Notes: generated by a model not told the origin, from the sequence alone. A stretch of 64,000 bases of DNA from Minisyncoccota bacterium (GCA_942491275.1 CALNZI010000004.1:3305-67304), one strand, 5' to 3'. Positions 5,723-59,243 are shown, numbered from the stretch's first letter. Program-made: numbers and translations.

Positions 5723-6157
5723 ATGAAATCTTTTACTTTAAAGGAAATTAAAGAAGTGGCTAAGAATCTTTTTAATGATGTTGTTAAAAAGAAAAAAAAT
5801 AAAGCCATGGTTATTTCTTTATCAGGTGAACTAGGGGCAGGCAAAACGACCTTGACTCAAGAGATAGCAGGACTACTTGGAATTAAAGAAAAAGTGGTTT
5901 CTCCGACCTTTGTAATAATGAAAAGATATGAAACCACCAGCCAAGATTTTAAGTATTTAATTCATATAGACGCATATCGTTTGGATAGTAGCCAGGAATT
6001 GTTGGCCCTTGGTTGGAAGGAATTAATGGAAAATGAGGAGAATTTGGTTGTTTTGGAGTGGCCGGAAAGAGTCCCAGAATGCTTGGAGGATAACGTTTGT
6101 AGGGTCATTTTAGGCCATAGGGACGAAAGGACCAGAACCATTGAAACTCTGCTATAA
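5723..6157 (+). CDS. tsaE: tRNA t6A37 biosynthesis ATPase TsaE
   Basis: P-loop SGELGAGKTTLTQ, HIDAYRL and typical size. The ATG at 5723 sits 6 nt after the tgttaatat -10-like box (the ORF track starts at 5717). Confidence 0.8.
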   Translation: MKSFTLKEIKEVAKNLFNDVVKKKKNKAMVISLSGELGAGKTTLTQEIAGLLGIKEKVVSPTFVIMKRYETTSQDFKYLIHIDAYRLDSSQELLALGWKELMENEENLVVLEWPERVPECLEDNVCRVILGHRDERTRTIETLL

Positions 6158-9732: not shown

Positions 9733-10070
9733 CTCGGATAGAGAAAAGAATAAAAAAAAGCCTGGAATAAAAATATGGGTGTGGGGGAAAAGAAAAGGCT
9801 TGGAAGTCGAACCTCAAAATTTGAGAACCGGCTTCCAAGCCTTTGAGCTTTTAGAAACAAAGAACATTATACTTCTCTATCTTAATAATAAGTATAAATA
9901 ATGAACTAATTTTTCTGTCATTAAATAATTTCGTATTTTTTTAACCCTTTTCATTGAAGGGGGACAATTGAATATTTTATGACATGTAAAAACAACTTGC
10001 GTACATTATAACGCTCAATTTACATATTTGCAAAGAGGGTTGGGGATAACCCCCACCCATATTATTTATG

Positions 10071-10475
10071 TTAATTTGGCCAAATATATTCTAAATTATC
10101 GGGTTCTGTCCAATTAAATTTTGAATAATAAACAGGGTCTTTTCTAAGTAAATTAGATTTATGGGCAGAATGAAAATTTCTTTTACCCAGCCATTTAGGG
10201 TATTCAATATTACCTCTAATTTTTTCTTTAATCATGTTGTTTTTGTACCCTCGTTTTTCCCATTCAATAACACACAAATTGAAATATTCTTTTAGAGCAT
10301 TAGGATGGTCCTTCCACATTAAAACAGCAGGATGATTTCTCCATCCTTTGGATTCGGTTCTATTTAAAACTATATTAAGAATTTGATATGCCTCAACTCT
10401 TTGTTTGCCAAGTCTTCGGTAATCTAAAACTTCAACAGTTTTTTTAAAACTTTTGTAAGGTAAAAATGTTTGCAT
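10071..10475 (-). CDS. pyrimidine-dimer DNA glycosylase (endonuclease V / Pyr_excise)-like protein
   Basis: N-terminus MQTFLPYKSFKKTVEVLDYRRLGKQRVEAYQIL...GWRNHPAVLMW matches my memory of this family. Not search-verified. Confidence 0.45.
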   Translation of the reverse strand: MQTFLPYKSFKKTVEVLDYRRLGKQRVEAYQILNIVLNRTESKGWRNHPAVLMWKDHPNALKEYFNLCVIEWEKRGYKNNMIKEKIRGNIEYPKWLGKRNFHSAHKSNLLRKDPVYYSKFNWTEPDNLEYIWPN

Positions 10476-10476
10476 T

Positions 10477-10872
10477 TTATTTATTTAAAAAGGTGATAGT
10501 CAGCTGCAATATTGTAGCAAATGAAACCCATAGTAAATAGGGTATTTGAATATAGCTGATCCATTTAGCATAGGGGAAGATGGCTACCATTGCCCAAACA
10601 AGAGTAACAAAAACAAGGATAATGTCAATTGAGGCTAAAAAGTTGTTTTTTAATTTAAATTGTAAGTATGTAAAGATTAAATTAAAGAAAATGTTAAGGA
10701 TGAAGGGTAGTGCTATTGCGAAAGATATTTTCCCTTTGAATAGCATGTGAAAAACCTTACCAAAAGAAATGATTATTAATACATATAAAACAGACCATAC
10801 TGGTCCAAATAACCAAGAAGGCGGCGCCCAGGTGGGTTTAATTAATTGTAAATACCAATTTGAATTATCCAT
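10477..10872 (-). CDS. tspO: TspO/MBR-family tryptophan-rich membrane protein (short form)
   Basis: WYLQLIKPTWAPPSWLFGPVWSVLYVLI and W-rich TM helices. At 131 aa it is shorter than typical. Confidence 0.7.
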   Translation of the reverse strand: MDNSNWYLQLIKPTWAPPSWLFGPVWSVLYVLIIISFGKVFHMLFKGKISFAIALPFILNIFFNLIFTYLQFKLKNNFLASIDIILVFVTLVWAMVAIFPYAKWISYIQIPYLLWVSFATILQLTITFLNK

Positions 10873-10879
10873 AATTAAA

Positions 10880-11080
10880 TTATATCATAATCTCAGGACG
10901 ACAAGCTTAAAGTTCCCGTTTCTTGGTTTATCGTACTTGTCGTCAGGAATAATTTTCTCGCCGTCGCTCTAAAATTTTCACGACCCTGCCTCGCCTATTT
11001 TTTCTGCTAAAAAAATTATGGCTCCGGCTCGGACAAGCTAAAAATCCCCAGCAGTGGGGATTTTTTACGCTTGTCCCCAG
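10880..11080. repeat. copy (a) of a ~200-nt structured intergenic repeat family
   Basis: Ends in the composite hairpin cggacaagc-taaaa-atcccca-GCAG-tggggat-tttttta-cgcttgtcc (11030..11077), near-identical to 15061..15110. Shares a cacgaccc(t/c)g..ctcg core with copies (b) and (c). Confidence 0.55.
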
Positions 11081-11202
11081 AACAGGAGATTATTATAACC
11101 ATATTATCCGACAAGAGTTATATGGAGGGGATGTACAATAAATTGATTTTTATTAAAGCGTTGCAAAAGGAGAATTTATAAATAATGATATAATTAAATA
11201 GT

Positions 11203-15269: not shown

Positions 15270-17003
15270 ATGAAGGTAACTAAAACTCCAAAATTTGATG
15301 CATTTTTAGATAAAATATTAGCTGACCTTGTTCCACATACTAGGGTTTGTTTTGATTGTAAAAAAGAATTTAATATAGAAGAAGAAGACATTGAGTTTTT
15401 TAAGATTTTTAGGGTTCCAGCTCCGAAACTTTGTCCAGATTGTCGTCAGAGGAATAGGCTCGCTTTTGCTAACTATTCAAATATATATAAAAGAAAATGC
15501 GATGTTCCCGGCCACGAGGATGTCATGATTTCATACGTGGCTCCAATAATGCCTTGGGTTACCTATGACTATGAAACATATTATTCTGATAAATGGGATC
15601 CACTTTCCTATGGACGAGAAATAGACGATGAAAAAAGTTTTCTGGAGCAATATTTAGAATTATTAAAAGTTGTCCCCATTGCAGGGGTTCGTCGTGGAGC
15701 AAATTCTATAAATTGTGATTTCAGTTTTTACGGCAAAGACATGAAGGATTGTTATTATCTTTTTGGAGGAAGACGATCGGAAGATATTATGTTTAGTTCT
15801 TCTATTTATAATTCAAAGAATGTAATGGATTCCTATTTTCTTCTTGACGTGGAGGGAGCTTTTCAAAATATTATAACCAGTGATTGTTATAAAAATAAAT
15901 ATGCTTATTTCTCCTCGAATTGTGTAGAATCTGATTTTATTTTTGATTGCAGAAATTGTCAAAATTGTTTTGGCTGTGTAAACCTTAGAAATAAAAATTA
16001 TTGTTATTTTAATCAACAACTTACAAAAGAAGAATATTTAAAAAAACGAGCGGAGATTGATTTAGGGGATAGAAAAACAAATGAAGAATATCAAAATAAA
16101 TTTTGGAATTTTGTGAAAGAAAACCCCATCAGAGCCACTAGAATTTTAAAATCAGAAAATTGTGTAGGTAATGACATAAAAGAATCAAGGAATTTGTATA
16201 ATGTTTGTCAGGCTGATAATTGTGACAACATAAGACACGCGGCTTTTGCTGTTATGAGCTTGAAAGACTCTATGGATATAAATCATTCCGGTGGAGGGGG
16301 AGGAAGACTCTATCATTGCCAGAATGCTGGGACTAAATCGTCCGATGTTAAATTTTCTTTTTCTGTCAAGGAATGTTCAGAGTGTGAATATATGATTTTT
16401 TCTAATAATTGCCAGAATTGTTTTGGTTGTTCTGGCATTAAAAATGCTTCCTATTCAATTTTTAATAAAAAGTACGAACCCGAAGAGTACTGGAAAAAAC
16501 TTGATGAAATAAAAACTAAAATGTTAGAAGATGGAACATACGGGGAGTTTTTCCCAATGTCTTTTTCTCCAATTGCCTATAATAGTTCCTTTGCCCATGT
16601 GATATATCCAATGGCAGAAAAAGAAGCCAAAGAAAGAGGTCTTTTCTGGCAACCTGAAAGTGACGTGGATATAAAAAATTTAAAAAGCATTGAAGCAAGT
16701 GAACTACCGGCTAATATTAATGATGTTGATTATGATATTTGCGATGTTGCTATTATCGGAGAAAAATCAAAAAAACCCTTTAGGTTGATAAAAAGAGAGA
16801 TTGATTTCTATAAACAAAATAAAATTTCTCTTCCTACGGATACCCCTTATCAGAGGATGTTAGATCGTTTCAAGATTTTAAATAACTTTAAAATTTTTGA
16901 TGAAATTTGTGATTCTTGTGGATTGTCTATAAAATCAGCTTATTTAAAAAAGGATGGATATAAACCATATTGTGAAAAATGTTATCAAAGAGAGGTTTTG
17001 TAA
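15270..17003 (+). CDS. cysteine-rich paralog family, copy 1 (subfamily I, 577 aa)
   Basis: Full-length homology to 33413..35164: KTP(K/Q)FD...LVPH.R.C, CRNC.(N/D)CFGCVNLRN, YGEFFP, ASELP..IN(D/E)V, ...YCEKCYQ(R/Q)EV(L/V)-stop. tgatataat at 15255..15263 lies 6 nt before the ATG. Confidence 0.85.
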   Translation: MKVTKTPKFDAFLDKILADLVPHTRVCFDCKKEFNIEEEDIEFFKIFRVPAPKLCPDCRQRNRLAFANYSNIYKRKCDVPGHEDVMISYVAPIMPWVTYDYETYYSDKWDPLSYGREIDDEKSFLEQYLELLKVVPIAGVRRGANSINCDFSFYGKDMKDCYYLFGGRRSEDIMFSSSIYNSKNVMDSYFLLDVEGAFQNIITSDCYKNKYAYFSSNCVESDFIFDCRNCQNCFGCVNLRNKNYCYFNQQLTKEEYLKKRAEIDLGDRKTNEEYQNKFWNFVKENPIRATRILKSENCVGNDIKESRNLYNVCQADNCDNIRHAAFAVMSLKDSMDINHSGGGGGRLYHCQNAGTKSSDVKFSFSVKECSECEYMIFSNNCQNCFGCSGIKNASYSIFNKKYEPEEYWKKLDEIKTKMLEDGTYGEFFPMSFSPIAYNSSFAHVIYPMAEKEAKERGLFWQPESDVDIKNLKSIEASELPANINDVDYDICDVAIIGEKSKKPFRLIKREIDFYKQNKISLPTDTPYQRMLDRFKILNNFKIFDEICDSCGLSIKSAYLKKDGYKPYCEKCYQREVL

Positions 17004-17428: not shown

Positions 17429-17465
17429 AAGAAATTATGTTATAATAGTTCCACAACTAAATATT

Positions 17466-17656
17466 AATTATCAAGAGTATGGAGATCCTCCTTCGTATAA
17501 ACTACGGACGGAGAGCGAGCACTGGCTCGATGACCCATCAGCAACCCTCATTTATACGAGTAGGTGCTAAATCCAGCCCGATAAAGTGAAAACTTTATTC
17601 AGGAAAGATAAATGGAAGTAGTTTATCTTTCCCCATTATGGGGATTTTTTATTTTC
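17466..17656 (+). promoter_or_regulatory. SAM-I (S-box) riboswitch with intrinsic terminator
   Basis: aTTATCAAGAG...GGAGAGcgagcACTGGCTCGATGAcCCatCAGCAACC...AGGTGCTAAATCCAGC...GAAAGATAAat matches the S-box core, with an extra hairpin inserted in P2. Terminator ccccattatgggg+T-run at 17631..17656. tgttataat -10 box at 17438..17446. Confidence 0.85.
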
Positions 17657-17809: not shown

Positions 17810-18286
17810 ATGAAAAAAATAGATGCAGTTTTAATACTTCCAGATATTCGTAGTGCTATCAATGTGGGAGCTATTTTTAGAACTGCAGATGCTGTGGGGA
17901 TCAATAAAATATTTCTGACGGGTTACACTCCACGACCAACTGATAAATTTAATCGGATTCAAAAAGATATTGCTAAAAGCGCTCTTGGATCTGAAACTTG
18001 GATTGACTGGGAGTATAAAAAAACTCTCACCCTTCTTTTAAATAATTTAAAGAAAAAAGGATATGAAATTATTGCCCTTGAGCAGGATGAAAGAGCAGTG
18101 GATTATCGTAAGCTTAAAATATCCAATAAGGTAGCTTTTATTTTAGGACCAGAGGTTCTAGGTTTAGATAAAAAGATATTGGATAAGTGCGATCAAATAA
18201 CTTACATTCCAATGTACGGCAAAAAAGAATCCCTCAATGTGTCAGTTTCCTGTGGAATTGCTTTATTTAAAATTTTGAAACCTTAG
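17810..18286 (+). CDS. SpoU/TrmH-family RNA 2'-O-methyltransferase
   Basis: NVGAIFRTADAVG, LILGPE-like FILGPEVLGL and IPMYGKKESLNVSVSCGIALF (SPOUT knot motifs). tgatacaat at 17794..17802. Confidence 0.85.
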   Translation: MKKIDAVLILPDIRSAINVGAIFRTADAVGINKIFLTGYTPRPTDKFNRIQKDIAKSALGSETWIDWEYKKTLTLLLNNLKKKGYEIIALEQDERAVDYRKLKISNKVAFILGPEVLGLDKKILDKCDQITYIPMYGKKESLNVSVSCGIALFKILKP

Positions 18287-33412: not shown

Positions 33413-35164
33413 ATGTCTAGTTCAAAAACTCCACAATTTGATAAAGTCGTTGATGAAGTTCTAGAAAAACTTGTTCCACACGAACGAAAATGTTTATGGA
33501 TAAATGAACATCCCCACTGTCAGGGTGTTTTTGAGATTGAAGATGCCGATATAAAATTTTTGAGAATGTTTAAAGTACCACCTCCGAATTATTGCCCAAC
33601 CTGTCGTCGTATGAGACGGCTTACGCACCTAACTGTTTCTCAACTTTTTAAAACTAAATGTGAAGCTCCTGGACATGACGAATCAATGATTTCAATTTTT
33701 CCAGAAGAATCACCTTGCCCTGTCTATGACTATAAATATTTTATTGGAGATGACTTCGACCCTTTTTCTTTCGGGCAGGAATGGAATAAAGATTTAAATC
33801 CCATGGAGCAACTTTTAGGTTTGAGAAAAATATTTCCCATGCCATCATTTTTAAATCGTAACCCCTCGGATGTTAATAGTGATTACTCCAATGGAGGCAG
33901 GGACGTGAAAAACGGATATTACACTGTTGGCTGTTACCACGTGGAAGATCTTTGGTATTCTATTCATATTAATAAAAGTAGAAACATAATGGACTCCAAT
34001 GCTATTCAGGATTCAGATTTAGTCTACGAGTCTATTACTTCCAATCATTTATATAAGTCTTCTTTTGTTTATTTTTCTAGCAATTGTACTGACAGCATGT
34101 TTTTGTTTGATTGTCGCAACTGTACAGATTGTTTTGGTTGTGTGAATTTAAGAAACGCTAAATATAATGTTTATAATAAGCAGTTAACTAAAGAACAGTA
34201 TGATGATTTTATGAAGAATATCATTCCTTTTTCTAGAGAGTTTTTGAGTGAGGCTAAAGAAAAATTTTGGGAATTGGTCAAAAGTAACCCCGTTAATGGC
34301 TCAAGAATTACAGCTTCCAATAATGTTCAAGGGGTTAAGATTGTAAATTCGAAGAACTTATTTGATGTGACAGATTCTATTGATTCGGAAAATGTTCGTC
34401 ATGCCGATGGAGCTTTGTCCCACAAAGATTCCATGGATTTTCTTTATTCAGGAGGGCATTCCAGTCTTCTTTATATGAATACAAATATTGGCTCGCAGTC
34501 TAGTAAAGTAAAATTTTCAGTTTCCTCTAAATTTTGCACAGACTCAGAATTTATTTTTAATTGTAAAAATTTAAATAATTGTTTTATGTGCTTTGGTTTA
34601 CAAAATAAATCTTATTGTATTTTTAATAAACAATATTCCGAAGAAGATTATTTTAAAATAATCGACGAAATAAAAACAGAGATGATTAAGAAAGGGGAGT
34701 ATGTCGATGGTCCAGGTTTTGAATTTTCTGCTCAGGCATATAATTTTTCAATTGGTCAGATTTTATATCCATTGACTGATGAACAAATAAAAAAAATGGG
34801 TGGATATATAGCTAAAGAGTCAGAAACAAATATTGGTGATATGGAAGTTGTGGAGGCCAGTGAATTGCCCCAAACCATAAATGAAGTCACCGATGATATT
34901 TTAGATAAAGCCATCAAATGTGAAGTTTCTGGACGGCCCTTTCGGATTATTTTTTCGGAACTTTCTTTTCTTCGAAGAGTAGGCTTTCCTTTACCAACGG
35001 TGCATCCTTCCATTAGAATGGAAAATCGCTGGAGATTTTCTCCTGTGGGTAGAAAATATCCGATGATCTGTGCTAAATGCCAGAAAAAGACAGAGTCTCT
35101 ATTTAATCCTAAAGACGGATATATTCTTTATTGTGAAAAATGCTATCAACAAGAAGTGGTATAA
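33413..35164 (+). CDS. cysteine-rich paralog family, copy 2 (subfamily I)
   Basis: MSSSKTPQFDKV...LVPHERKC, FDCRNCTDCFGCVNLRN, FNCKNLNNCFMCFGLQNKSYCIFNKQYSEEDY and ...YCEKCYQQEVV-stop. The ATG at 33413 is preferred over the listed 33386. Confidence 0.85.
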   Translation: MSSSKTPQFDKVVDEVLEKLVPHERKCLWINEHPHCQGVFEIEDADIKFLRMFKVPPPNYCPTCRRMRRLTHLTVSQLFKTKCEAPGHDESMISIFPEESPCPVYDYKYFIGDDFDPFSFGQEWNKDLNPMEQLLGLRKIFPMPSFLNRNPSDVNSDYSNGGRDVKNGYYTVGCYHVEDLWYSIHINKSRNIMDSNAIQDSDLVYESITSNHLYKSSFVYFSSNCTDSMFLFDCRNCTDCFGCVNLRNAKYNVYNKQLTKEQYDDFMKNIIPFSREFLSEAKEKFWELVKSNPVNGSRITASNNVQGVKIVNSKNLFDVTDSIDSENVRHADGALSHKDSMDFLYSGGHSSLLYMNTNIGSQSSKVKFSVSSKFCTDSEFIFNCKNLNNCFMCFGLQNKSYCIFNKQYSEEDYFKIIDEIKTEMIKKGEYVDGPGFEFSAQAYNFSIGQILYPLTDEQIKKMGGYIAKESETNIGDMEVVEASELPQTINEVTDDILDKAIKCEVSGRPFRIIFSELSFLRRVGFPLPTVHPSIRMENRWRFSPVGRKYPMICAKCQKKTESLFNPKDGYILYCEKCYQQEVV

Positions 35165-35211
35165 TTAAAAATGCGAAAGGACCGTCCTTTACACAAAAAA
35201 AACTATCAAAG

Positions 35212-36930
35212 ATGAAACAGGAAACAAAAAATTGTCAGAATTGTAAAAAGGATTTTATTATTGAGTCTGATGATTTTTCTTTCTACGAGAAAATTCAAGT
35301 ACCACCTCCTACTTTTTGTCCGGAATGTCGGCTTGTTAGAAGATTAGTAACAAGGAACGAGAGAACTTTATATAAAAGAAAGTGTGATTTGTGCGAAGAA
35401 GAAAAAATTCTAGTTTACCCCGCAAATAGTAAATATAAAGTGTATTGCAGAGAATGTTTTATTGGGGATAATTGGGATTCAATGGAATATGGGAAAGATT
35501 ATGATTTTTCAAAACCATTTTTTGAACAATATATTGATTTATTTAATTCTGTACCAAAATTTGGAGTTATAAAACAAGGTTTTTCTACTAATAGTGAATA
35601 TACAAATAGAGTAACTAATTTAAAAAATTGTTATCTTACCTATGCTACAGCCGATAGTGAAAATTGTAATTATGGAGCATCCTATTGGGATTCAACCGAT
35701 TCCATGGATTGTTTTAATATTAGGAAGAGTGAACAATGTTTTTATTGTATGGATTGTAATCAATGTAGTAAATTAAGGTATTCTAAAGAATGTAATAATT
35801 GTGTTGATTCGTATTTTTTAAATAATTGTCGTAATTGTGTAAATTGTTTTGGATGTACGAATTTAAGAAACAAAAATTATTGTATTTTTAATAAACAATA
35901 TTCTCGTGACGAATATTTTAAAAAGATTTCTGAATTTAATTTATCAGATAAAAATAATTTAAAAGAAATAAAAGAAAAAGTAAAACAAATTTCACTTAAA
36001 GAGATTGTTCCATCTTTGGTTGAAAATTATTCTACTAACATTTCAGGGAATTGGATTGAAAATGCTAAGAATACAAATTTATCTTTTGGTTGCGAGAAGG
36101 TTGAAGATGGAAAATATTTATTTGGAGTAACTGAAGCTAAGGACGTTATGGATTATACCTATTGGGGAAAATCTAGTGAACTTATTTATGAGGCTTCAAA
36201 CGTAGGGATACAGTGTTCCAATGTTAAATTTTCAAATGAGTCTTGGAGTCAGTTAATTGATTCAGAATATTGTCATAATTGTTTAAATTGTTCAGATTTA
36301 TTTGGATGTGTGGGTTTAATTAAAAAACAGTATTGTATTTTTAATAAACAATATACAAAGGAGAAATACGAAGAATTAGTTCCTAAAATAAAAGAGCACA
36401 TGATGAGTATGCCTTTCGTTGATAGAATGGGAAGAACTATTAAATATGGAGAATTTTTTCCATGCGACATGACTCCTTTTTCCTACAATGAAACTATTGC
36501 TCAGGAATTCTTTCCAAAGACAAAGGAACAGGCTACCAAAGAAGGGTATAGATGGTTAGATGTAGATAAAAAAACTCATCAGCCGACGATAGCGGGGGAA
36601 GATTTACCAAGTACCATTCCAGAAGTTAAGGATGATATTTTGAAAGAAATTATTGGTTGTGCTCATAAGGGTGATTGCAATCAACAGTGTACTGTTGCCT
36701 TTAAAATTATTCCTGATGAATTACAATTCTATCGAAGCAATGATATCCCTTTACCGGAGTTATGTCCTAACTGTAGGCATTATGAGAGATTAGAAGAGAG
36801 AAATCCAATAAAGTTGTGGCATAGAAGTTGTATGAAAGAAGGTTGTAATAATAAATTTAAAACTAGTTACTCTCCAGAAAGGCCAGAAACAGTATATTGC
36901 CAACCATGCTATAGACAAGAAGTTGTATAA
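35212..36930 (+). CDS. cysteine-rich paralog family, copy 3 (subfamily II)
   Basis: MKQETKNCQNCKKDFIIESDDFSFYEKIQVPPPTFCPECR, NNCRNCVNCFGCTNLRNKNYCIFNKQYSRDEY, YCHNCLNCSDLFGCVGLIKKQYCIFNKQYTKEKY and ...YCQPCYRQEVV-stop. 39 Cys in 572 aa by my count. Confidence 0.85.
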   Translation: MKQETKNCQNCKKDFIIESDDFSFYEKIQVPPPTFCPECRLVRRLVTRNERTLYKRKCDLCEEEKILVYPANSKYKVYCRECFIGDNWDSMEYGKDYDFSKPFFEQYIDLFNSVPKFGVIKQGFSTNSEYTNRVTNLKNCYLTYATADSENCNYGASYWDSTDSMDCFNIRKSEQCFYCMDCNQCSKLRYSKECNNCVDSYFLNNCRNCVNCFGCTNLRNKNYCIFNKQYSRDEYFKKISEFNLSDKNNLKEIKEKVKQISLKEIVPSLVENYSTNISGNWIENAKNTNLSFGCEKVEDGKYLFGVTEAKDVMDYTYWGKSSELIYEASNVGIQCSNVKFSNESWSQLIDSEYCHNCLNCSDLFGCVGLIKKQYCIFNKQYTKEKYEELVPKIKEHMMSMPFVDRMGRTIKYGEFFPCDMTPFSYNETIAQEFFPKTKEQATKEGYRWLDVDKKTHQPTIAGEDLPSTIPEVKDDILKEIIGCAHKGDCNQQCTVAFKIIPDELQFYRSNDIPLPELCPNCRHYERLEERNPIKLWHRSCMKEGCNNKFKTSYSPERPETVYCQPCYRQEVV

Positions 36931-38575: not shown

Positions 38576-38624
38576 ATAACCCCGTAGTAGAATTTTGTCT
38601 AAAATTTCACTACAGGGTATAATA
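38576..38624 (+). promoter_or_regulatory. conserved ~49-nt palindrome-plus-TATAAT element (copy A) upstream of pilM/N
   Basis: ataaCCCCGTAGTAGAATTTTgtctAAAATTTCACTACAGGGTATAATa, near-identical to 57493..57541. TATAAT at 38618..38623 lies 9 nt before the ATG. Confidence 0.6.
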
Positions 38625-41136: not shown

Positions 41137-41203
41137 AGCTTACTTGAATTTTAATGATATTATGGTAGTATTGTTGAGTATTTGAATGTTTTGTGTTAGT
41201 ACT

Positions 41204-41240
41204 ATATGTTATATGCGCGGTTAGTTGTCTTGGTAGGTCC
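41204..41240 (+). repeat. degenerate duplicate of the tRNA-Val promoter plus 5' half
   Basis: atatgttatatGCGCGGTTAGttgtcTTGGTAGgtcc versus the real gene atatgttttatatGCGCGGTTAGctcagTTGGTAGagc, 76 nt downstream. Confidence 0.6.
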
Positions 41241-41290
41241 TTTAACTTAGAAACAAAATAATCATTATTAGTACCAAATATGTTTTATAT

Positions 41291-41363
41291 GCGCGGTTAG
41301 CTCAGTTGGTAGAGCAACTCATTTACACTGAGAAGGTCGGGGGTTCAAATCCCTCACCGCGCA
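41291..41363 (+). tRNA. tRNA-Val (UAC)
   Basis: GCGCGGTTAGCTCAGTTGGTAGAGCAACTCATTTACACTGAGAAGGTCGGGGGTTCAAATCCCTCACCGCGCA. Anticodon loop TTTACAC. Confidence 0.9.
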
Positions 41364-52146: not shown

Positions 52147-52197
52147 GAATTAGTGCAATTTATAAAATTATTTGGTAGAGTAAATAAAGGGCATTTC

Positions 52198-53988
52198 ATG
52201 CCTTTTATTGTTATGGAGAAAGACTATTCAAATTTACATAGAGGCCTTGTTATTAAATACTTTTGGCAAGTTCTAAGGAATTTTAAGGTTTCGTTTTTTA
52301 TCACTATTTCAAGTGGAATAATTTCTGCTATTTTAGATATTTACATACCTTTGCAATTTCTTAAATTATGGAATATCTTGAGTCTTAATGATTTTAGCCT
52401 TGCAGGACAAGCTCAGCACGTTGTAATTATAATTTTTATATTAGGATTAACTAACTGGGGACTCAGAAGAGTTCGAGGTTTTTCTCATTCCTATTTTCAA
52501 TCCAACACAATGGCGGGACTTCGTCATCAAGCCTTTTCATATATGATAGGGCATTCCCATACTTTTTTTGCTAATAATTTTGGAGGATCATTAACTCAAA
52601 AAATAAATAAATATGCTAGAGCTTTTGAGAAATTATTAGATAGGGCTATTGAAGATGGATTACCTCTAACAGTAAGATCTGTGGGAACTGTTATTGCTAT
52701 TTATACTCTTGTTCCTAAATATGCTTACATTTTAACTATTTTTTGTGTTGTATTTATAGCAACCGCTTTAATTTATACTCGGTTAAAATTAAAATATGAT
52801 GTGATTGCTTCCAGAGCGGACACTAAAACTACGGGTGTTTTAGCTGATTCAATTAGTAATCACTCATCTATTCAACTTTTTGCTGGGCATGATTATGAAA
52901 AAGAACGAGTAGGTAGTGTTATTAATAAACAGAAAAAAGCGACAGTTTTTAATTGGTATTTATGGGAAGGGCTGGGAGGTCTTCAGTCTTTGTATGCAGT
53001 TACTATTGAATTTATAGTTTTTTGGATAGCTATTGGAGATTGGAAGGCCGGTTTAATTGGTTTGCCCGTATTAGTTTTGATTCAAGGTTATTTGATTCGT
53101 TTAATTGAAAGTCTCTGGAGATTTGCTGGGATAGTTAGAGTTTTCTACGATAGTTTCGCTGACGCCCAAGAAATGGCTCTTATTCTTGATACTCCATATG
53201 GAATTGAAGATAAAACAACTGAAGTTTTGAAAAAAATTAGAGGTGAGGTTAAATTTGAAAAAGTTACTTACATATATGATAAAAATAATATAAAAGTTTT
53301 TGATGATTTTTCTATTACCATTCCGGCGGGACAAAAAATTGCTTTGGTTGGAACTTCTGGAGCAGGGAAGTCTACTTTTGTAAATCTTCTTATGAGATTA
53401 TTTAATTTAACATCGGGAGAAATTTTAATTGATGATGTTAACATTAGTGAAATTTCTCAGCAAAATTTACGAGAACAAATTGCTTTTGTTCCACAGGATC
53501 CAGCTTTATTTCATCGTTCTTTGATGGAGAATATTCGTTATGGAAGAAGGGATGCTTCTGATGAAGAAGTTAAGGTGGCTGCATCTTTAGCTAATTGTGA
53601 TGATTTTATTGATAAATTACCAGCAGGCTATGATACTTATGTAGGAGAAAGAGGAGTGAAACTTTCAGGAGGAGAACGCCAGAGAGTTGCTATCGCCAGA
53701 GCAATCCTTAAAAATGCACCAATCCTTGTTTTAGATGAAGCCACTTCTGCTCTTGATTCAGAATCTGAATTACTTATTCGTGATGCTCTCCGTAATTTAA
53801 TTCAAAATAAAACAACAATTGTTATTGCCCACAGACTTTCAACTATTAGAGAAATGGATAGGATTGTTGTTGTTTCAGAAGGAAAGATTGTTGAAGATGC
53901 AAATCATGAAGAATTGATAAATAAAAAATCTGGTATTTATAAAAAACTTTGGAATATTCAAGCTGGAGGTTTTGAAGAGTTGCTATAA
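52198..53988 (+). CDS. ABC exporter, fused permease plus ATPase (MsbA-like)
   Basis: Six-TM N-terminal domain. Walker A GTSGAGKST, signature LSGGERQR, Walker B ILVLDEATSALD. Start uncertain (52153 GTG, 52198 or 52213 ATG). Confidence 0.9.
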   Translation: MPFIVMEKDYSNLHRGLVIKYFWQVLRNFKVSFFITISSGIISAILDIYIPLQFLKLWNILSLNDFSLAGQAQHVVIIIFILGLTNWGLRRVRGFSHSYFQSNTMAGLRHQAFSYMIGHSHTFFANNFGGSLTQKINKYARAFEKLLDRAIEDGLPLTVRSVGTVIAIYTLVPKYAYILTIFCVVFIATALIYTRLKLKYDVIASRADTKTTGVLADSISNHSSIQLFAGHDYEKERVGSVINKQKKATVFNWYLWEGLGGLQSLYAVTIEFIVFWIAIGDWKAGLIGLPVLVLIQGYLIRLIESLWRFAGIVRVFYDSFADAQEMALILDTPYGIEDKTTEVLKKIRGEVKFEKVTYIYDKNNIKVFDDFSITIPAGQKIALVGTSGAGKSTFVNLLMRLFNLTSGEILIDDVNISEISQQNLREQIAFVPQDPALFHRSLMENIRYGRRDASDEEVKVAASLANCDDFIDKLPAGYDTYVGERGVKLSGGERQRVAIARAILKNAPILVLDEATSALDSESELLIRDALRNLIQNKTTIVIAHRLSTIREMDRIVVVSEGKIVEDANHEELINKKSGIYKKLWNIQAGGFEELL

Positions 53989-54072
53989 AAATGAAAGAGA
54001 AGGGGATAACAGTTGCCATTTTGTAAAATGGCAACTGTTTGTATTTGTTGTCAATTATTGTATTATTTAAAT

Positions 54073-55740
54073 ATGAAGGCTGAAACTAAAAAATGTCAGA
54101 ATTGTAAGAGTAACTTTTTAATTGAAGTTGATGATTTTTCCTTTTATGAGAAAATGGGGGTGTCTGTTCCCACTTTTTGTCCAGAATGCCGATTAATGCG
54201 CAGGATGGCTTGGAAGAATGAAAGATATCTTTATCATCGTGAATGTGGAAAATGTAAAAATCGTGTTATTTCTATTTATTCAAAGGAGAAACCTTTCCCT
54301 ATATATTGTAATACTTGTTGGTGGGGAGATGATTGGGACGCCATGGATTATAGAGTAAATTATGATCCATCTAAAAGTTTTTTTTCTCAATTTCAGGAGC
54401 TTTTAAATAAAACTCCTCATTTAGCTATACCTAATTTTAAAAATAATGATTGTGAATATACAAGCTGGTTGGATGAAAGTAAGAGCTGCTATATGTCTTT
54501 TGGTTCTTCTAGGTGTGAAGATGTTTTATTTTCTGAAACATTACAGGACTGTAAAAATTCTTTAGATTTAACTAGTTGTGATTCAGTCACCTATTCTTAT
54601 AATTCTGTTTATTGTCATCATTCAAATAGAATACAATATTGCGTGAATTGTTATAATTGCGTGAATTGTTATTTTTCTTTTGATTTAAAGGGGTGCCAAA
54701 ATTGTTTTATGTCATATAATTTAAGGCATAAAAATTACATGATTTTAAATGAGTCATATACAAAAGAAAAGTTCAAGGAAAAGATGGATAAAATTCTTGG
54801 AGATAGAGATTTGTTAAAAGAATCATTAGAAAAATTTAAAAAATTAATAAAAACACAGGGAATACATCAATTCGCTGATATCCAGAAAAGTTATAATTCT
54901 AAAGGCAATAATCTTATTGAGTGTAAGAATGCCTTGAATTGTTTTGATTCAAAGAAGATTGAAGATTGTCGGTATGTTACCTATGGTGGTTTTATTAAAG
55001 ATTGTTTTGATCTATATGGAGTGATGAAAAATAGTGAACTTTGTTATGAGGGGTTTAGTATGACCGGTAGCTCTAATTGTGTCTCAGTGTTGAGTTCGTG
55101 GGGAGATAATATTGATATTCAGTACTCTCAGTATGTAATTGGATGTAAAAATCTTTTTGGTTGCCATTCTTTACGTAAAAAATCTTTTTGTATCTTAAAT
55201 AAACAATACGATGAGATTGAGTATGAGAAAATAAAAAAATTAATTATTGAAGAAATGAAAAATAAAAAAAATTATGGGGAGTATTTTCCAGTAGAAATGT
55301 CTCCATATGGCTATAATGAAACAGTTGCAAACATATTTTTTCCAATGACAAAAGAAGAAGTCATGGCTGCTGGTTATAGATGGCAAGAAGAAACAGGAGG
55401 TGTTTTTGGAAAATCTACCATTTTAACTAAGGACCTTCCTTCTTCTATTAAAGAAACGGGAGATAATATTTTAAAAGAAATAATCGAATGTTTTAATTGT
55501 AGTAAAAATTTTAAAATTGTAGAAAAGGAACTTAACTTATACAGAGCATTAAATATTCCTATTCCTGATAACTGTATTGATTGTCGATTTAAAGAACGTT
55601 TACAATTTTGTTTACCACGCAAACTTTGGCATCGAAAATGTATGAAAGAAGGTTGCAACAATGAATTCGAAACCTCCTATGCACCAGAGAGGGAAGAGAT
55701 AGTATACTGTGAGCAATGTTATCAAGCTGAAGTTTATTAA
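54073..55740 (+). CDS. cysteine-rich paralog family, copy 4 (subfamily II)
   Basis: MKAETKKCQNCKSNFLIEVDDFSFYEKMGVSVPTFCPECR..., YCVNCYNCVNCYFSFDLKGCQNCFMSYNLRHKNY and ...YCEQCYQAEVY-stop. The ATG at 54073 follows ttaaat as in other leaderless-type starts. Confidence 0.85.
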   Translation: MKAETKKCQNCKSNFLIEVDDFSFYEKMGVSVPTFCPECRLMRRMAWKNERYLYHRECGKCKNRVISIYSKEKPFPIYCNTCWWGDDWDAMDYRVNYDPSKSFFSQFQELLNKTPHLAIPNFKNNDCEYTSWLDESKSCYMSFGSSRCEDVLFSETLQDCKNSLDLTSCDSVTYSYNSVYCHHSNRIQYCVNCYNCVNCYFSFDLKGCQNCFMSYNLRHKNYMILNESYTKEKFKEKMDKILGDRDLLKESLEKFKKLIKTQGIHQFADIQKSYNSKGNNLIECKNALNCFDSKKIEDCRYVTYGGFIKDCFDLYGVMKNSELCYEGFSMTGSSNCVSVLSSWGDNIDIQYSQYVIGCKNLFGCHSLRKKSFCILNKQYDEIEYEKIKKLIIEEMKNKKNYGEYFPVEMSPYGYNETVANIFFPMTKEEVMAAGYRWQEETGGVFGKSTILTKDLPSSIKETGDNILKEIIECFNCSKNFKIVEKELNLYRALNIPIPDNCIDCRFKERLQFCLPRKLWHRKCMKEGCNNEFETSYAPEREEIVYCEQCYQAEVY

Positions 55741-55780
55741 ATTTGTAAAAGGACGGTCCTTTTACAAAAAATTATCAAAT

Positions 55781-57496
55781 ATGAAACCAGAAACAAAAAA
55801 CTGTCAAAACTGTAAAAACGACTTCGTTATTGAAGTTGATGATTTTTCTTTTTATGAGAAAATAAAAGTTCCAGCACCTACTTTTTGTCCGGAGTGTCGG
55901 TTTGTTAGAAGAATGGCTTATCGAAACGAAAGATCTTTGTATAAAAGTTCCTGTGATTTATGTAAAAAAAAGATTATCTCCATGTATCCTAAAGATGTTG
56001 AGTTTACTGTGTACTGTCGTGATTGCTGGTGGTCTGATAAATGGGATGCAACGGACCATGGAAGAGATTATGATTTTTCGAGGCCATTTTTCGAACAATT
56101 GAAAGAATTATTTTGGTCTGTTCCCCACTTAGCTATTTGGCAAAGGAATGTTATAAATTCTGATTTTTCTAACATGGTAGGAGAAAGTAAGAATGTATAT
56201 TTGTCTGCTTCGGTTGTTATGGAATCTGAAAATGTCTTTTATTCTAAGGCCATTGATAAGTCTTTTAATATTTTTGACTGTTCTAATTTAAAAGAATCAA
56301 ATAATTGTTATGAAAATATTGAAGGAGAAAAGAACTATAATTCACAACACCTTTTCCTGTCTCGAAGCTGTATAGACTCTATGTTTTTAATTGACTGTGT
56401 TAATTGTAGTAATTGTGTATTATCTTCCAATTTGAGAAATAAAGAATTTTATTTTAGAAATAAACAATATTCTAAAGAAGAATATTTTAATCAGATTGAA
56501 AAACTTAATTTGGGGAGTCGTCAAGCTCGCAATGAAGTAATTAAAGAATTTGATCTTCTTTGTGAAGATGGTATCTATCGTTATGCAAATATTATTAAAT
56601 CAGTTGATTCAACTGGGAATAATATTTTAAATGCAAAAAATTCTAAATATTGTTTTGATTTTTATGATATGGAAAATTTGAAATATGGATATAGGGGAAT
56701 TTCTGTAAAAGATTCCATGGACTTTGATTTTGGAACAACTTCAGAATTAATGTATGAATATTCCACAGGAGCAACCAATGATTATAATGTTAGATTTTCC
56801 TATTCGGCCATGGGGTCAGTTAGAAACGCAGAGTATACGGATTCCTGTGTTTCCTCTGAAAATATATTCGGTTGTTATAGTTTGAAGAAAAAAGAATATG
56901 TAATTTTAAATAAAGTCTACACAAAGGAAAAGTTTTTCGAATTAAGAGAAAAAATAATTAAACATATGAATGAAATGCCATTTAAGGGGAGCAATGGCAG
57001 AGAATATAAATATGGGGAATTTTTTCCAGTGGAAATTTCTCCATTTGGATACAATGAAACATGTGCCCATGAATTTTACCCTCTAACAAAAGAAGAGATA
57101 TTAAAAAGGGGACACCAATGGAGAGATTTAGAAGAAAAAAATTATACAATTACCCTTGGGGTAGATTCTATTCCAGATAATATAAAAGATGTTGATAAAA
57201 ATATTTTAAAAGAAGTACTAGGTTGTTCTCATGAAGGGGACTGTGACCATCAGTGTATGACAGCTTTTAAAATCACTCAGGATGAATTTAATTTTTATAA
57301 AAAAAATAATATTCCGATTCCTAATAAGTGTTCTAATTGTAGGTATTATGAAAGATTTAAAAAAATTCCACCTCCAAAACTTTGGACACGTTCTTGTATG
57401 AAAGAAGGATGTTCTAATATCTTTCAGACAGCTTACTCACCTAAGGGGAAAGAAAAAGTATATTGTGAGGAATGTTATCAGCAAGAAGTGATATAA
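55781..57496 (+). CDS. cysteine-rich paralog family, copy 5 (subfamily II)
   Basis: MKPETKNCQNCKNDFVIEVDDFSFYEKIKVPAPTFCPECR... and ...YCEECYQQEVI-stop. The 5' flank is homologous to that of copy 3. Confidence 0.85.
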   Translation: MKPETKNCQNCKNDFVIEVDDFSFYEKIKVPAPTFCPECRFVRRMAYRNERSLYKSSCDLCKKKIISMYPKDVEFTVYCRDCWWSDKWDATDHGRDYDFSRPFFEQLKELFWSVPHLAIWQRNVINSDFSNMVGESKNVYLSASVVMESENVFYSKAIDKSFNIFDCSNLKESNNCYENIEGEKNYNSQHLFLSRSCIDSMFLIDCVNCSNCVLSSNLRNKEFYFRNKQYSKEEYFNQIEKLNLGSRQARNEVIKEFDLLCEDGIYRYANIIKSVDSTGNNILNAKNSKYCFDFYDMENLKYGYRGISVKDSMDFDFGTTSELMYEYSTGATNDYNVRFSYSAMGSVRNAEYTDSCVSSENIFGCYSLKKKEYVILNKVYTKEKFFELREKIIKHMNEMPFKGSNGREYKYGEFFPVEISPFGYNETCAHEFYPLTKEEILKRGHQWRDLEEKNYTITLGVDSIPDNIKDVDKNILKEVLGCSHEGDCDHQCMTAFKITQDEFNFYKKNNIPIPNKCSNCRYYERFKKIPPPKLWTRSCMKEGCSNIFQTAYSPKGKEKVYCEECYQQEVI

Positions 57497-57541
57497 CCCC
57501 GTAGTAGAATTTTATTAAAATTTCACTACAGGGTATAATAA
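57493..57541 (+). promoter_or_regulatory. conserved palindrome-plus-TATAAT element (copy B) upstream of paralog copy 6
   Basis: ataaCCCCGTAGTAGAATTTTattAAAATTTCACTACAGGGTATAATaa. Overlaps the copy-5 stop codon. TATAAT at 57534..57539 lies 6 nt before the ATG at 57546. Confidence 0.6.
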
Positions 57542-57545
57542 ATAC

Positions 57546-59243
57546 ATGAGTCCTGAAACTAAAAATTGTGTAAATTGTCAGAAAGATTTTATCATTGAAA
57601 CAGATGACTTCTCTTTTTACGAAAAAATCAAAGTTCCAGCACCTACTTGGTGTCCTGATTGTCGACAGCAACGTCGATATGCCTGGCGAAATGAGCGTAC
57701 TTTATATAGGCGAAATTGTGATTTATGTGAAAAAAGTACGGTTACTATTTATTCGCCCAATAAAGACTGTAAGGTTTATTGTTTGAATTGTTGGTGGGGA
57801 GATGGATGGGATCCTGCTTCTTACGGACGAGATTTTGATTTTAATCGACCATTTTTTGAGCAATATTATGAACTACAAAAAGAAGTTCCAAGAATGGCAC
57901 TTTTAAATAAAAGAGGAACAAATTCTGAATATACAAATCATTCAGCAGACAATAAGAATGTTTATTTATCCTATTGTTCTTTTGATGGAGAAGACATTCT
58001 TCACTCCACCTGGATAATGCAATCGAAAAGTTGCTTGGACTGTAGTTTTATAAATGGAGGAGGGGAGAAGTTGTATCAATGTATTGATTCTCGGAAGTCA
58101 TATCAATGTCAATTTGGTTTTTTTCTAAAGGATTGTGTGAACTGTTATTATTGTTACGACAGTCATGGGTGTACAGATTGTTTTATGTCTTCAAATTTAC
58201 GTAATAAAAGTTATGTATTTAAAAATGAGCAATATACTCGTGAAGGATATTTTGAGAAATTAAAGGAATATAATTTAAGCTCTTTTGAAGTTAGAGAGCA
58301 ATTGAAAAAAGATTTTCTTAATTTATTGAAGAATAATTCTACTCACAAACATTTTATGGGTGAACGTAATTTAAATTCAACAGGAGGGTCTATTTTTAAT
58401 AGTAAAAATTCATTGTTTTGTTTTGATTCTGAAGATCTTGAAGATGTAAAAAATGGATACGCAGTGTTAGGTGTAAAAAATTCGATGGATATTTATCACG
58501 TCGGAATAAAAACAGAATTAGTCTATGAAGACCATGGATGTACAGGAGTATATGATTGTCAGTTTTGCCATCTTTGTTACGATAATTCTCATTTAATGTA
58601 TTGCGACTCTTGTCAGAATAGTCAAAATCTTTTTGGTTGTATCTCTGTTAAAAAAGGAGAGTACATGATTTTTAATAAAAAATATACAAAAGAAGAATAT
58701 GTTGAGCTAAAAGAAAAGATCATTGAACATATGGAAAAAACAGGGGAGTATGGAGAATTTTTTTCACCAAGTATTTCTCCTGTTTCCTATAATGAAACTC
58801 AAGGAAATTATTATATGCCTTTAACAAAAGAAGAAGTTTTATCAAGAGGATGGTTATGGGAAGATCAGGTGCCGGGAACCTTCGGAAAGGAAACTGTTCA
58901 GCCAGAAGAAATTCCCGACATCATTGAAGAAGTAAAAGAAGATGTTTTGACTGCTATCTTTAAATGTACTGAATGTACAAAAAATTATAATATTGTACCC
59001 GATGAATTAACCTTCTATCAAAGAGAAAAAATACCAATACCTAGAAGGTGTCCCGACTGTCGCTATAAATGGCGTTTCGACCTTCGTTTGCCAAGGAGGC
59101 TTTGGTTAGGGGTCTGTAAATGTGATAAAAAAGGTCATTTTCATGAAGAAAAACCTTGTTCTGAGCAGTTTCAAACTAGTTACGAGCCAAATAGGCCAGA
59201 AATTGTATATTGTGAAAAATGTTACCTTCAAGAAATAGTCTAA
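57546..59243 (+). CDS. cysteine-rich paralog family, copy 6 (subfamily II)
   Basis: MSPETKNCVNCQKDFIIETDDFSFYEKIKVPAPTWCPDCR..., KDCVNCYYCYDSHGCTDCFMSSNLRNKSYVFKNEQYTREGY and ...YCEKCYLQEIV-stop. Confidence 0.85.
   Translation: MSPETKNCVNCQKDFIIETDDFSFYEKIKVPAPTWCPDCRQQRRYAWRNERTLYRRNCDLCEKSTVTIYSPNKDCKVYCLNCWWGDGWDPASYGRDFDFNRPFFEQYYELQKEVPRMALLNKRGTNSEYTNHSADNKNVYLSYCSFDGEDILHSTWIMQSKSCLDCSFINGGGEKLYQCIDSRKSYQCQFGFFLKDCVNCYYCYDSHGCTDCFMSSNLRNKSYVFKNEQYTREGYFEKLKEYNLSSFEVREQLKKDFLNLLKNNSTHKHFMGERNLNSTGGSIFNSKNSLFCFDSEDLEDVKNGYAVLGVKNSMDIYHVGIKTELVYEDHGCTGVYDCQFCHLCYDNSHLMYCDSCQNSQNLFGCISVKKGEYMIFNKKYTKEEYVELKEKIIEHMEKTGEYGEFFSPSISPVSYNETQGNYYMPLTKEEVLSRGWLWEDQVPGTFGKETVQPEEIPDIIEEVKEDVLTAIFKCTECTKNYNIVPDELTFYQREKIPIPRRCPDCRYKWRFDLRLPRRLWLGVCKCDKKGHFHEEKPCSEQFQTSYEPNRPEIVYCEKCYLQEIV

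Follow-up and report, generated by a model that had tools for sequence, protein, structure and literature searches.

Palindromic spacers between tandem zinc-finger paralogs of a Minisyncoccota bacterium: candidate REP-type elements younger than the genes they separate

How do two pairs of long-diverged genes come to be separated by similar spacers? This question is raised by a 64,000-nt stretch of DNA from a Minisyncoccota bacterium (GCA_942491275.1, CALNZI010000004.1:3305-67304; the window, with positions counted from its first letter), which encodes six paralogs, c1 to c6, of a Cys-rich protein of about 570 amino acids with treble-clef-type zinc fingers at both ends. The spacers between c2 and c3 and between c4 and c5 have a perfect palindrome, AAAGGACSGTCCTTT, in common (35176-35190 and 55744-55766). 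An earlier note on this DNA took the resemblance as the mark of a segmental duplication, in which the 3' end of the upstream gene, the hairpin, and the 5' end of the downstream gene were copied as one unit. The gene tree and synteny contradict that unit, and the 3' ends of c2 and c4 and codon usage give it no support. On balance it is probable that the spacer hairpins are two copies of a repetitive extragenic palindromic (REP)-type element, kin to the palindromes that flank REP-associated tyrosine transposase (RAYT)-like Y1 transposases of Paceibacteria.

The window has a G+C content of 30-37% and is Patescibacteria-like in character, and the best relatives of its proteins are labelled Paceibacterota, Nomurabacteria or Minisyncoccia. 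Subfamily I of the paralogs consists of c1 and c2 (42% identity) and subfamily II of c3 to c6 (40-46% mutual identity), with ~30% identity between the subfamilies; c3 and c5 (46%) are the closest pair within the window genome. The tandem pair at 33413-36930 is, as first described, a subfamily I gene (c2) that resembles the singleton at 15270 (c1), followed by a subfamily II gene (c3), and its coordinates are correct. Profile searches with the family give weak treble-clef/LIM-like zinc-finger matches only, the C-terminus of c2 being matched by Pfam zf_Tbcl_2, and the AlphaFold model of c3 is poor (predicted local distance difference test score, pLDDT, of 57.6).

The two spacer hairpins are perfect palindromes, as previously reported, and the proposed homology of the spacers also holds, their local alignment giving a score of 21 that was reached in 0 of 5000 shuffles; the best other tile of the window scored 14. 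Both palindromes are TGTAAAGGACSGTCCTTTACA-like in form, with A- and T-runs around a GC core, an AT-rich stem, a 3-nt loop, and TGTA...TACA ends. The 15-nt core is identical in both, and the 64 kb contain two copies of GGACNGTCC in all, versus 0.19 expected; no further degenerate copies were found in the window, and no target-site duplication is visible at either copy. The stem begins 8 nt past the stop codon of c2 and 2 nt past that of c4, and each palindrome is centered 26-29 nt upstream of the ATG of c3 or c5. The RNA fold of the c2-c3 palindrome has an energy of -5.1 kcal/mol (z -2.4) and that of the c4-c5 palindrome -12.3 kcal/mol (z -5.1; 0 of 200 shuffles). Additionally, the spacers resemble each other in their A-rich part past the palindrome when it is taken by itself (3 of 5000 shuffles), and the c2-c3 tail lacks both a good -10 box and a Shine-Dalgarno sequence. 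In an Rfam covariance-model search, 35100-35300 had no match with E<=1, and no match at the gathering threshold in the window fell on the palindrome spacers.

The reading frames of c3 and c5 continue upstream across the palindrome without a stop codon (35140-35211 and 55709-55780), there encoding KGPSF and KGRSF, and callers of open reading frames (ORFs) can lengthen both genes by 24 codons. These extensions are probably artefacts because the orthologs start at the downstream ATG. The A-rich tail ACAAAAAAYTATCAAA also resembles the coding sequence ACAAAAAAYTGTCARA that lies 29 nt downstream (35195-35210 vs 35224-35239 and 55764-55779 vs 55793-55808), and this resemblance of 16-mers in c3 and c5 could be a small tandem duplication or a low-complexity coincidence.

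If the spacers had been duplicated together with the genes, c3 and c5 should be sister genes, and the earlier note had itself named a tree without that pairing as counting against the duplication. A neighbor-joining tree (100 bootstraps) of the six copies and their orthologs placed c3, c5, and c6 each within a different orthogroup with 100% bootstrap support, the c3 orthogroup including P0001-P0098 and the c5 orthogroup P0121 and others, while c2 grouped with its ortholog in a related locus, L081 (100% bootstrap), and with c1. Ortholog identity is up to 76% for c3 and 69% for c5, versus 46% between the two. Between c2 and c4, identity over the last 60 nt is 57%, the lowest value among all 15 paralog pairs. 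At the other side of the spacers, the first 40 coding nucleotides of c3 and c5 agree at 34 of 40 positions; they are similar, but the description of them as nearly identical was too strong, and the segment is conserved throughout the subfamily. Over the first ~130 nt the nucleotide identity of c3 and c5 is 0.82-0.83 vs 0.64-0.74 in other in-genome pairs, and the same codon is used at 21/31 to 25/36 of the identical residues (68-69%) vs 53-58% elsewhere, an excess that is not significant and is equalled by ortholog pairs (L001 for c3 and L085 for c5). Since the N-terminal zinc-finger segment is kept across subfamily II in many genomes, the similarity of the 5' ends reflects protein conservation in an AT-rich genome. 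Gene conversion at this end was considered as well and was not demonstrable, the 25/36 identity (vs about 55%) being matched by orthologs from other genomes.

The relatives point in the same direction. In L081, whose c3 ortholog is the 76% one, the gene order is DUF5652, RuvX, c2 ortholog, an 85-amino-acid membrane ORF, c3 ortholog, tRNA-binding protein, VTT, and PilM, and the junction between the c2 and c3 orthologs holds the 85-amino-acid ORF and no hairpin. In L082-L084 (c3 ortholog 73%) the c3 ortholog comes immediately after RuvX, again with no hairpin, and the c5 orthologs of L085 and L086 are located after RNase III or GrpE and also lack it. The hairpin is absent from the orthologous junctions in L081-L086 and in 80 genome loci, and the 87 related loci (about 720 kb) contain 0 GGACNGTCC sites and no transposase. 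Taken together, the tree, the 3' ends of c2 and c4, the 5' codons, and the hairpin-free syntenic relatives demonstrate that the spacer is much younger than the gene duplication, and the absence of GGACNGTCC from the related loci makes the element lineage-specific, as REPs are. Hairpins of other sequence are common in such positions. At 65 junctions between tandem family genes (L001-L080) the spacers fall into two classes, of at most 16 nt or at least 32 nt, and most spacers of 20-150 nt hold strong near-perfect hairpins of unrelated sequence (e.g. L054, L074, L034, and L011), so that an intercistronic hairpin is a recurrent solution in these arrays.

Where, then, does the palindrome of the window occur outside it? 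A scan of metagenome contigs for the pattern AAAGGACNGTCCTTT(N)ACA returned 120 loci, most of which are unrelated matches, chance or genic, in other organisms, and only the transposase-linked and low-GC loci were used. Eight of the 120 (L205, L094, L167, L124, L176, L189, L131, and L172; G+C 31-51%) contain 3-4 palindrome copies each, and in all eight the copies bracket the gene of a homologous protein of about 230 amino acids. Six of these loci share one layout, with a copy ~30-65 nt upstream of the ATG, a copy inside the gene at +168 (+174 in L172), and a copy at the 3' end that overlaps the last codons or lies just beyond them; in L176 and L131 the copies are clustered at the gene ends and none is at +168. 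The proteins match Pfam Y1_Tnp (IS200-like) with 31-33 bits vs a cutoff of 23 bits, and their sole good NCBIfam match is to the REP-associated tyrosine transposase (E 1e-9 to 2e-13, 37-50 bits). They have an invariant H84-F-H86 (HUH) motif and Y144 in YIHLNP. The family has more than 6000 relatives, whose source names are Paceibacterota, Nomurabacteria or Minisyncoccia transposases, with one named 'RayT'.

The c2-c3 copy matches 18 of the 21 positions of the transposase-flanking consensus, TGTAAAGGACNGTCCTTTACA. In L208 (gene 9961-10700) a transposase that is 71% identical has an altered palindrome, TGTGAAGGACCTTCCTTCACA, at the same three places, and the encoded residues shift with the palindrome (KGRSF to EGPSF and KDGPLQ to KEGPSQ), from which it follows that the DNA element constrains the transposase protein. 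Over 28 palindrome copies, compensatory changes were found in 5 of 10 stem pairs (0 of 500 shuffles). One of the transposase loci, L167/L209, is a Paceibacterota contig that also encodes an ABC transporter 74% identical to that at 52153-53988 of the window and a c6 ortholog (65%). Intergenic palindrome doublets occur in L151 and L165, with no transposase in the sequence covered for those loci, and doublets in inverted orientation are present in L151, L165, and L176.

Two features of these loci were observed in addition. The transposase genes of L205 (1190-1914), L094, L167/L209, L124, L189, L172, and L208 contain their own palindrome three times; recognition hairpins inside the transposase's own coding sequence are an unusual layout that deserves its own study. 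A PaaX_M/winged-helix gene directly follows the transposase in four loci (L205 1924-2481, L167 2860-3453, L094, and L208 10710-11234), and PaaX-like homologs stand convergent beside zinc-finger paralog arrays in L002 (4185-4637, minus strand), L020, L036, and L062. No PaaX-like gene is present in the 64 kb of the window.

The defining features of REP/RAYT systems and their 'REPtron' pattern have been described (PMC3337134, PMC3733652), and the phyla listed in REP surveys are others than Patescibacteria (PMC3733652, PMC12306157). Our literature search found no paper that pairs REP/RAYT-type elements with Patescibacteria. Like the REP/BIME (bacterial interspersed mosaic element) sequences of E. 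coli and the REPINs (REP doublets forming hairpins) of Pseudomonas, the window palindromes are short, able to form a stem-loop, and extragenic, and they lie just downstream of coding regions, past the stop codon and between co-directional genes. As with REP/RAYT (TnpA_REP) systems, in the related contigs a single HUH/Tyr Y1-transposase gene stands between copies of the identical palindrome, the palindrome co-varies with the transposase variant that it accompanies, and inverted doublets exist. The elements differ from classical REPs in stem composition (AT-rich around a small GC core) and in their low apparent copy number, from known REP hosts in that the host is an ultra-small Patescibacteria genome, and from known RAYT genes in that the transposase genes carry extra palindromes inside the coding sequence. 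The end hairpins of IS200/IS605 elements are a further comparison, as there too a Y1 HUH transposase recognizes imperfect hairpins flanking its gene, and the window copies show no target-site duplication; however, the window copies are isolated ~23-nt hairpins without a transposase gene, and NCBIfam groups the transposase with RAYTs and not with IS200.

In the scenario that we favor, the cognate enzyme would be a RAYT-like, IS200-family tyrosine (Y1) transposase of the kind common in Paceibacteria (Patescibacteria), and copies of the palindrome would have reached the spacers of both pairs, c2-c3 and c4-c5, when the paralogs had long been separate. A single entry followed by copying to the second junction is the alternative. 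Of the two copies, that between c4 and c5 is intact and that between c2 and c3 is decaying. As the window itself contains no transposase, the link to this genome consists of palindrome sequence identity and host relatedness and not of co-occurrence, and mobilization by the Y1 transposase in the window genome is accordingly put forward as probable.

Several points weigh against the REP-type reading. The window has two palindrome copies in 64 kb and no RAYT gene, and L209 (13 kb) shows no copies outside the transposase gene; the copy number of the element may be low. The inner 15 nt were bound to match through the core of the search pattern, which leaves the outer stem and the association with the transposase as the only independent evidence. 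The window copies have ~18 nt of A-rich flank in common that is outside the transposase-flanking consensus, and a plain model of two independent insertions leaves this flank unexplained; the tail could belong to a larger mobile unit, could have been copied between junctions via the paralogous flanks, or could be a convergent initiation region without a Shine-Dalgarno sequence. Classical REP superfamilies have a GTAG or CGTC tag at one end, which the palindromes lack, CGTC being present only at the center of the c2-c3 copy, and the NCBIfam scores of the transposases are under the curated cutoff of 80 bits. Finally, the covariation would look the same if the palindrome were a symmetric operator bound by a dimeric protein.

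The shared flank is the starting point of the alternative in which, once one junction had received the palindrome, ectopic recombination or gene conversion transferred a copy of the complete spacer to the other, the homology arms being the conserved codons for the C-terminal CxxCYQxEV and for the N-terminal zinc finger. Such a transfer is compatible with a REP origin and is the closest surviving form of the segmental-duplication idea. Paralogous coding sequence does lie on both sides of both junctions, the A-rich part is shared besides the palindrome, and the first ~130 nt of c3 and c5 are the most alike of the in-genome pairs and have the higher codon agreement. That agreement, though, is the non-significant one matched by L001 and L085, the c2 and c4 ends are the least similar pair, and c3 retains its c3-type LVRRL and c5 its c5-type FVRRM, so that any conversion tract must have been very short. 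We consider such copying unlikely, if still worth keeping in view. The original proposal, that the spacer was duplicated with c3 and c5 and then kept by purifying selection, accounts for the spacer homology and for c3 and c5 being the closest in-genome paralogs, but it is exceedingly improbable given their separate orthogroups with closer orthologs elsewhere, the orthologous junctions and 87 related loci without the spacer or its site, and upstream 3' ends that are not specifically similar.

A palindrome with 7-1-7 symmetry at a short distance from each ATG could instead be a duplex site for a dimeric regulator of c3 and c5, and the PaaX-like winged-helix protein would be one candidate, as its gene follows the transposase or adjoins the paralog arrays in the loci named above; the symmetric covariation suits an operator equally. 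Against this, the window has no PaaX-like gene, the site is missing from the c3 and c5 orthologs of other genomes, the transposase also has the palindrome on its flanks in the longer loci L176, L131, and L172 where no PaaX-like gene was found, and copies lie inside the transposase gene, whose encoded amino acids change along with them. With the palindrome in loci where no such gene was detected and inside the transposase frame, the operator fits less well than the REP-type reading, and we regard it as improbable. That the palindrome is just a common intrinsic terminator, or an AT-rich hairpin that arose by chance, is very unlikely. Strong unrelated hairpins do fill most of the 20-150-nt spacers of tandem family genes elsewhere, and A- and T-runs flank the GC core, as would suit a terminator; but a terminator scan did not call the spacer palindrome, whose stem is followed by an A-rich tail with no U-tract, and the same core, identical in both copies, is tied to the transposase elsewhere. 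A terminator role and a REP origin are not mutually exclusive.

Further support for mobile palindromes in this lineage is provided by a second hairpin, in the c5-c6 spacer, that is unrelated to the spacer palindrome. This hairpin (about 38 nt, fold -14.8 kcal/mol) lies between two TATAA repeats in the window, and a sister copy precedes a pilM-like gene, the two regions (57497-57541 and 38580-38624) being 95.6% identical over 45 nt. In L081 the orthologous position upstream of pilM (5752-5799) is an empty site, CGTATAAT, and the second hairpin is therefore an insertion. Compensatory stem variants occur in other Paceibacteria, at TATAA/TATAAT sites in L035 (7377), L082 (8754 and, on the minus strand, 4939), and L083. 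It follows that spacer palindromes move independently of the flanking genes in this lineage and that a segmental duplication is not needed. The second hairpin looks like a miniature transposable element with inverted repeats (MITE) that targets or supplies -10 boxes. Its comparison class is formed by the Correia elements of Neisseria and similar promoter-bearing MITEs, with which it shares a small palindromic insertion, a short duplicated AT-rich target (TATAA here), the supply or restoration of a -10 box, and filled and empty sites that are visible between relatives; unlike Correia elements, it is only ~38 nt long and has no Correia-type terminal inverted repeats. The coordinates of both hairpin types and of the genes around them are collected in Table 1.

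Table 1. Paralogs, spacers, and hairpins of the window
Feature	Position	Strand	Remarks
c1	15270-17003	+	subfamily I singleton; TATAAT 6 nt before ATG
c2	33413-35164	+	subfamily I; first cistron of first tandem pair
c2-c3 spacer	35165-35211	+	47 nt
Palindrome, decayed copy	35172-35195	+	perfect 15-nt core AAAGGACCGTCCTTT at 35176-35190
A-rich tail of c2-c3 spacer, AAAAAAACTATCAAAG	35196-35211	+	homologous to 55767-55780
c3	35212-36930	+	subfamily II; second cistron of first tandem pair
Sister copy of second hairpin with TATAAT	38580-38623	+	upstream of pilM-like gene (no relation to the paralogs); hairpin 38580-38617
Terminator-like hairpin	54008-54039	+	after ABC-transporter gene; 14-bp stem, T-rich tail; -23.5 kcal/mol
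c4	54073-55740	+	subfamily II; first cistron of second tandem pair
c4-c5 spacer	55741-55780	+	40 nt
Palindrome, intact copy	55742-55768	+	perfect 23-nt palindrome TGTAAAAGGACGGTCCTTTTACA at 55744-55766
A-rich tail of c4-c5 spacer, AAATTATCAAAT	55769-55780	+	homologous to c2-c3 tail
c5	55781-57496	+	subfamily II
Second hairpin, CCCCGTAGTAG...CTACAGGG	57497-57533	+	c5-c6 spacer; abuts TATAAT at 57534-57539, 6 nt before ATG of c6
c6	57546-59243	+	subfamily II; own leaderless-type promoter

What the palindromes might do depends on how the genes are transcribed. A perfect TATAAT lies 6-9 nt upstream of 9 of 48 gene starts vs 0.45% of random positions, and a match of at least 5/6 upstream of 15 of 48 starts vs 5.4% of random positions (examples of such starts are 6165, 15270, 29560 on the minus strand, 43476, 47765, and 57546). 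Shine-Dalgarno motifs are scarce in the window, and with the TATAAT boxes so near the starts leaderless mRNAs seem to be the rule for the first genes of transcription units. A box of this type precedes c1, c4, and c6, that of c4 being a TATTAT after the terminator-like hairpin and 6 nt before the ATG. Neither c3 nor c5 has one, the best -10-like hexamers being AACTAT (3/6) for c3 and AATTAT (4/6) for c5. A sigma-70 promoter scan gave calls no more common than in shuffles (37 vs 28.8 and 36 vs 30.3), so promoter calls are uninformative in this AT-rich window. Because c3 and c5 lack the TATAAT-at-minus-6 box, the palindromes are probably inside ruvX-c2-c3 and c4-c5 mRNAs, in which these genes would be co-transcribed. 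The suggestion made earlier that the palindrome is a hairpin within a polycistron or a protein-binding site is compatible with this evidence.

In E. coli, REPs stabilize the upstream mRNA, and those no more than 15 nt from a stop codon cause ribosomes to stall and reduce translation (PMC12306157). Both window palindromes are within this distance of a stop codon, the range of the E. coli effect. In the mRNA, the palindrome would fold as a stem-loop 2-8 nt past the upstream stop codon, where, as with E. coli REPs, it could keep 3' exonucleases off the upstream cistron, dampen read-through, and hold up terminating ribosomes. The net effect would be that expression of the two paralogs is uncoupled. 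A probable polycistron with a stem-loop in its spacer also recalls Rho-independent terminators and intercistronic stabilizers such as the malE-malF REP; unlike these, the window palindromes have no U-tract, and their sequence is repeated and transposase-associated.

Other features of the window were recorded. An S-adenosylmethionine (SAM) riboswitch (Rfam RF00162, 46.2 bits, just above gathering) is present at 17465-17614 on the plus strand, upstream of the gene at 17810-18286. The 1.47-kb region 9733-11202 has no listed ORF of at least 150 amino acids and no Rfam match, and it shows several short matches to other intergenic regions. The segments 41203-41236 and 41279-41312 are 82% identical over 34 nt, with the second spanning the 5' end of tRNA-Val and the repeat lying 76 nt upstream; the repeat at 41203-41236 may be a tRNA fragment or a duplicated promoter or leader.

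More broadly, and tentatively, Patescibacteria may keep a REP/RAYT system of their own type, in which each transposase gene has three co-evolving hairpins that dictate amino acids, and dispersed copies have been recruited as intercistronic hairpins that set the relative expression of tandem paralogs in an otherwise leaderless genome; this is possible, although we would not expect all of it to hold. If the REP-type reading is true, it would place REP/RAYT-type elements in Patescibacteria, whose genomes of ~1 Mb are ones in which repeats are seldom considered. The analysis also corrects an evolutionary inference, as the apparent duplication scar between the paralog pairs is a younger and probably mobile palindrome, and it provides a testable handle on tandem-paralog expression in an organism that is apparently Shine-Dalgarno-poor and leaderless.

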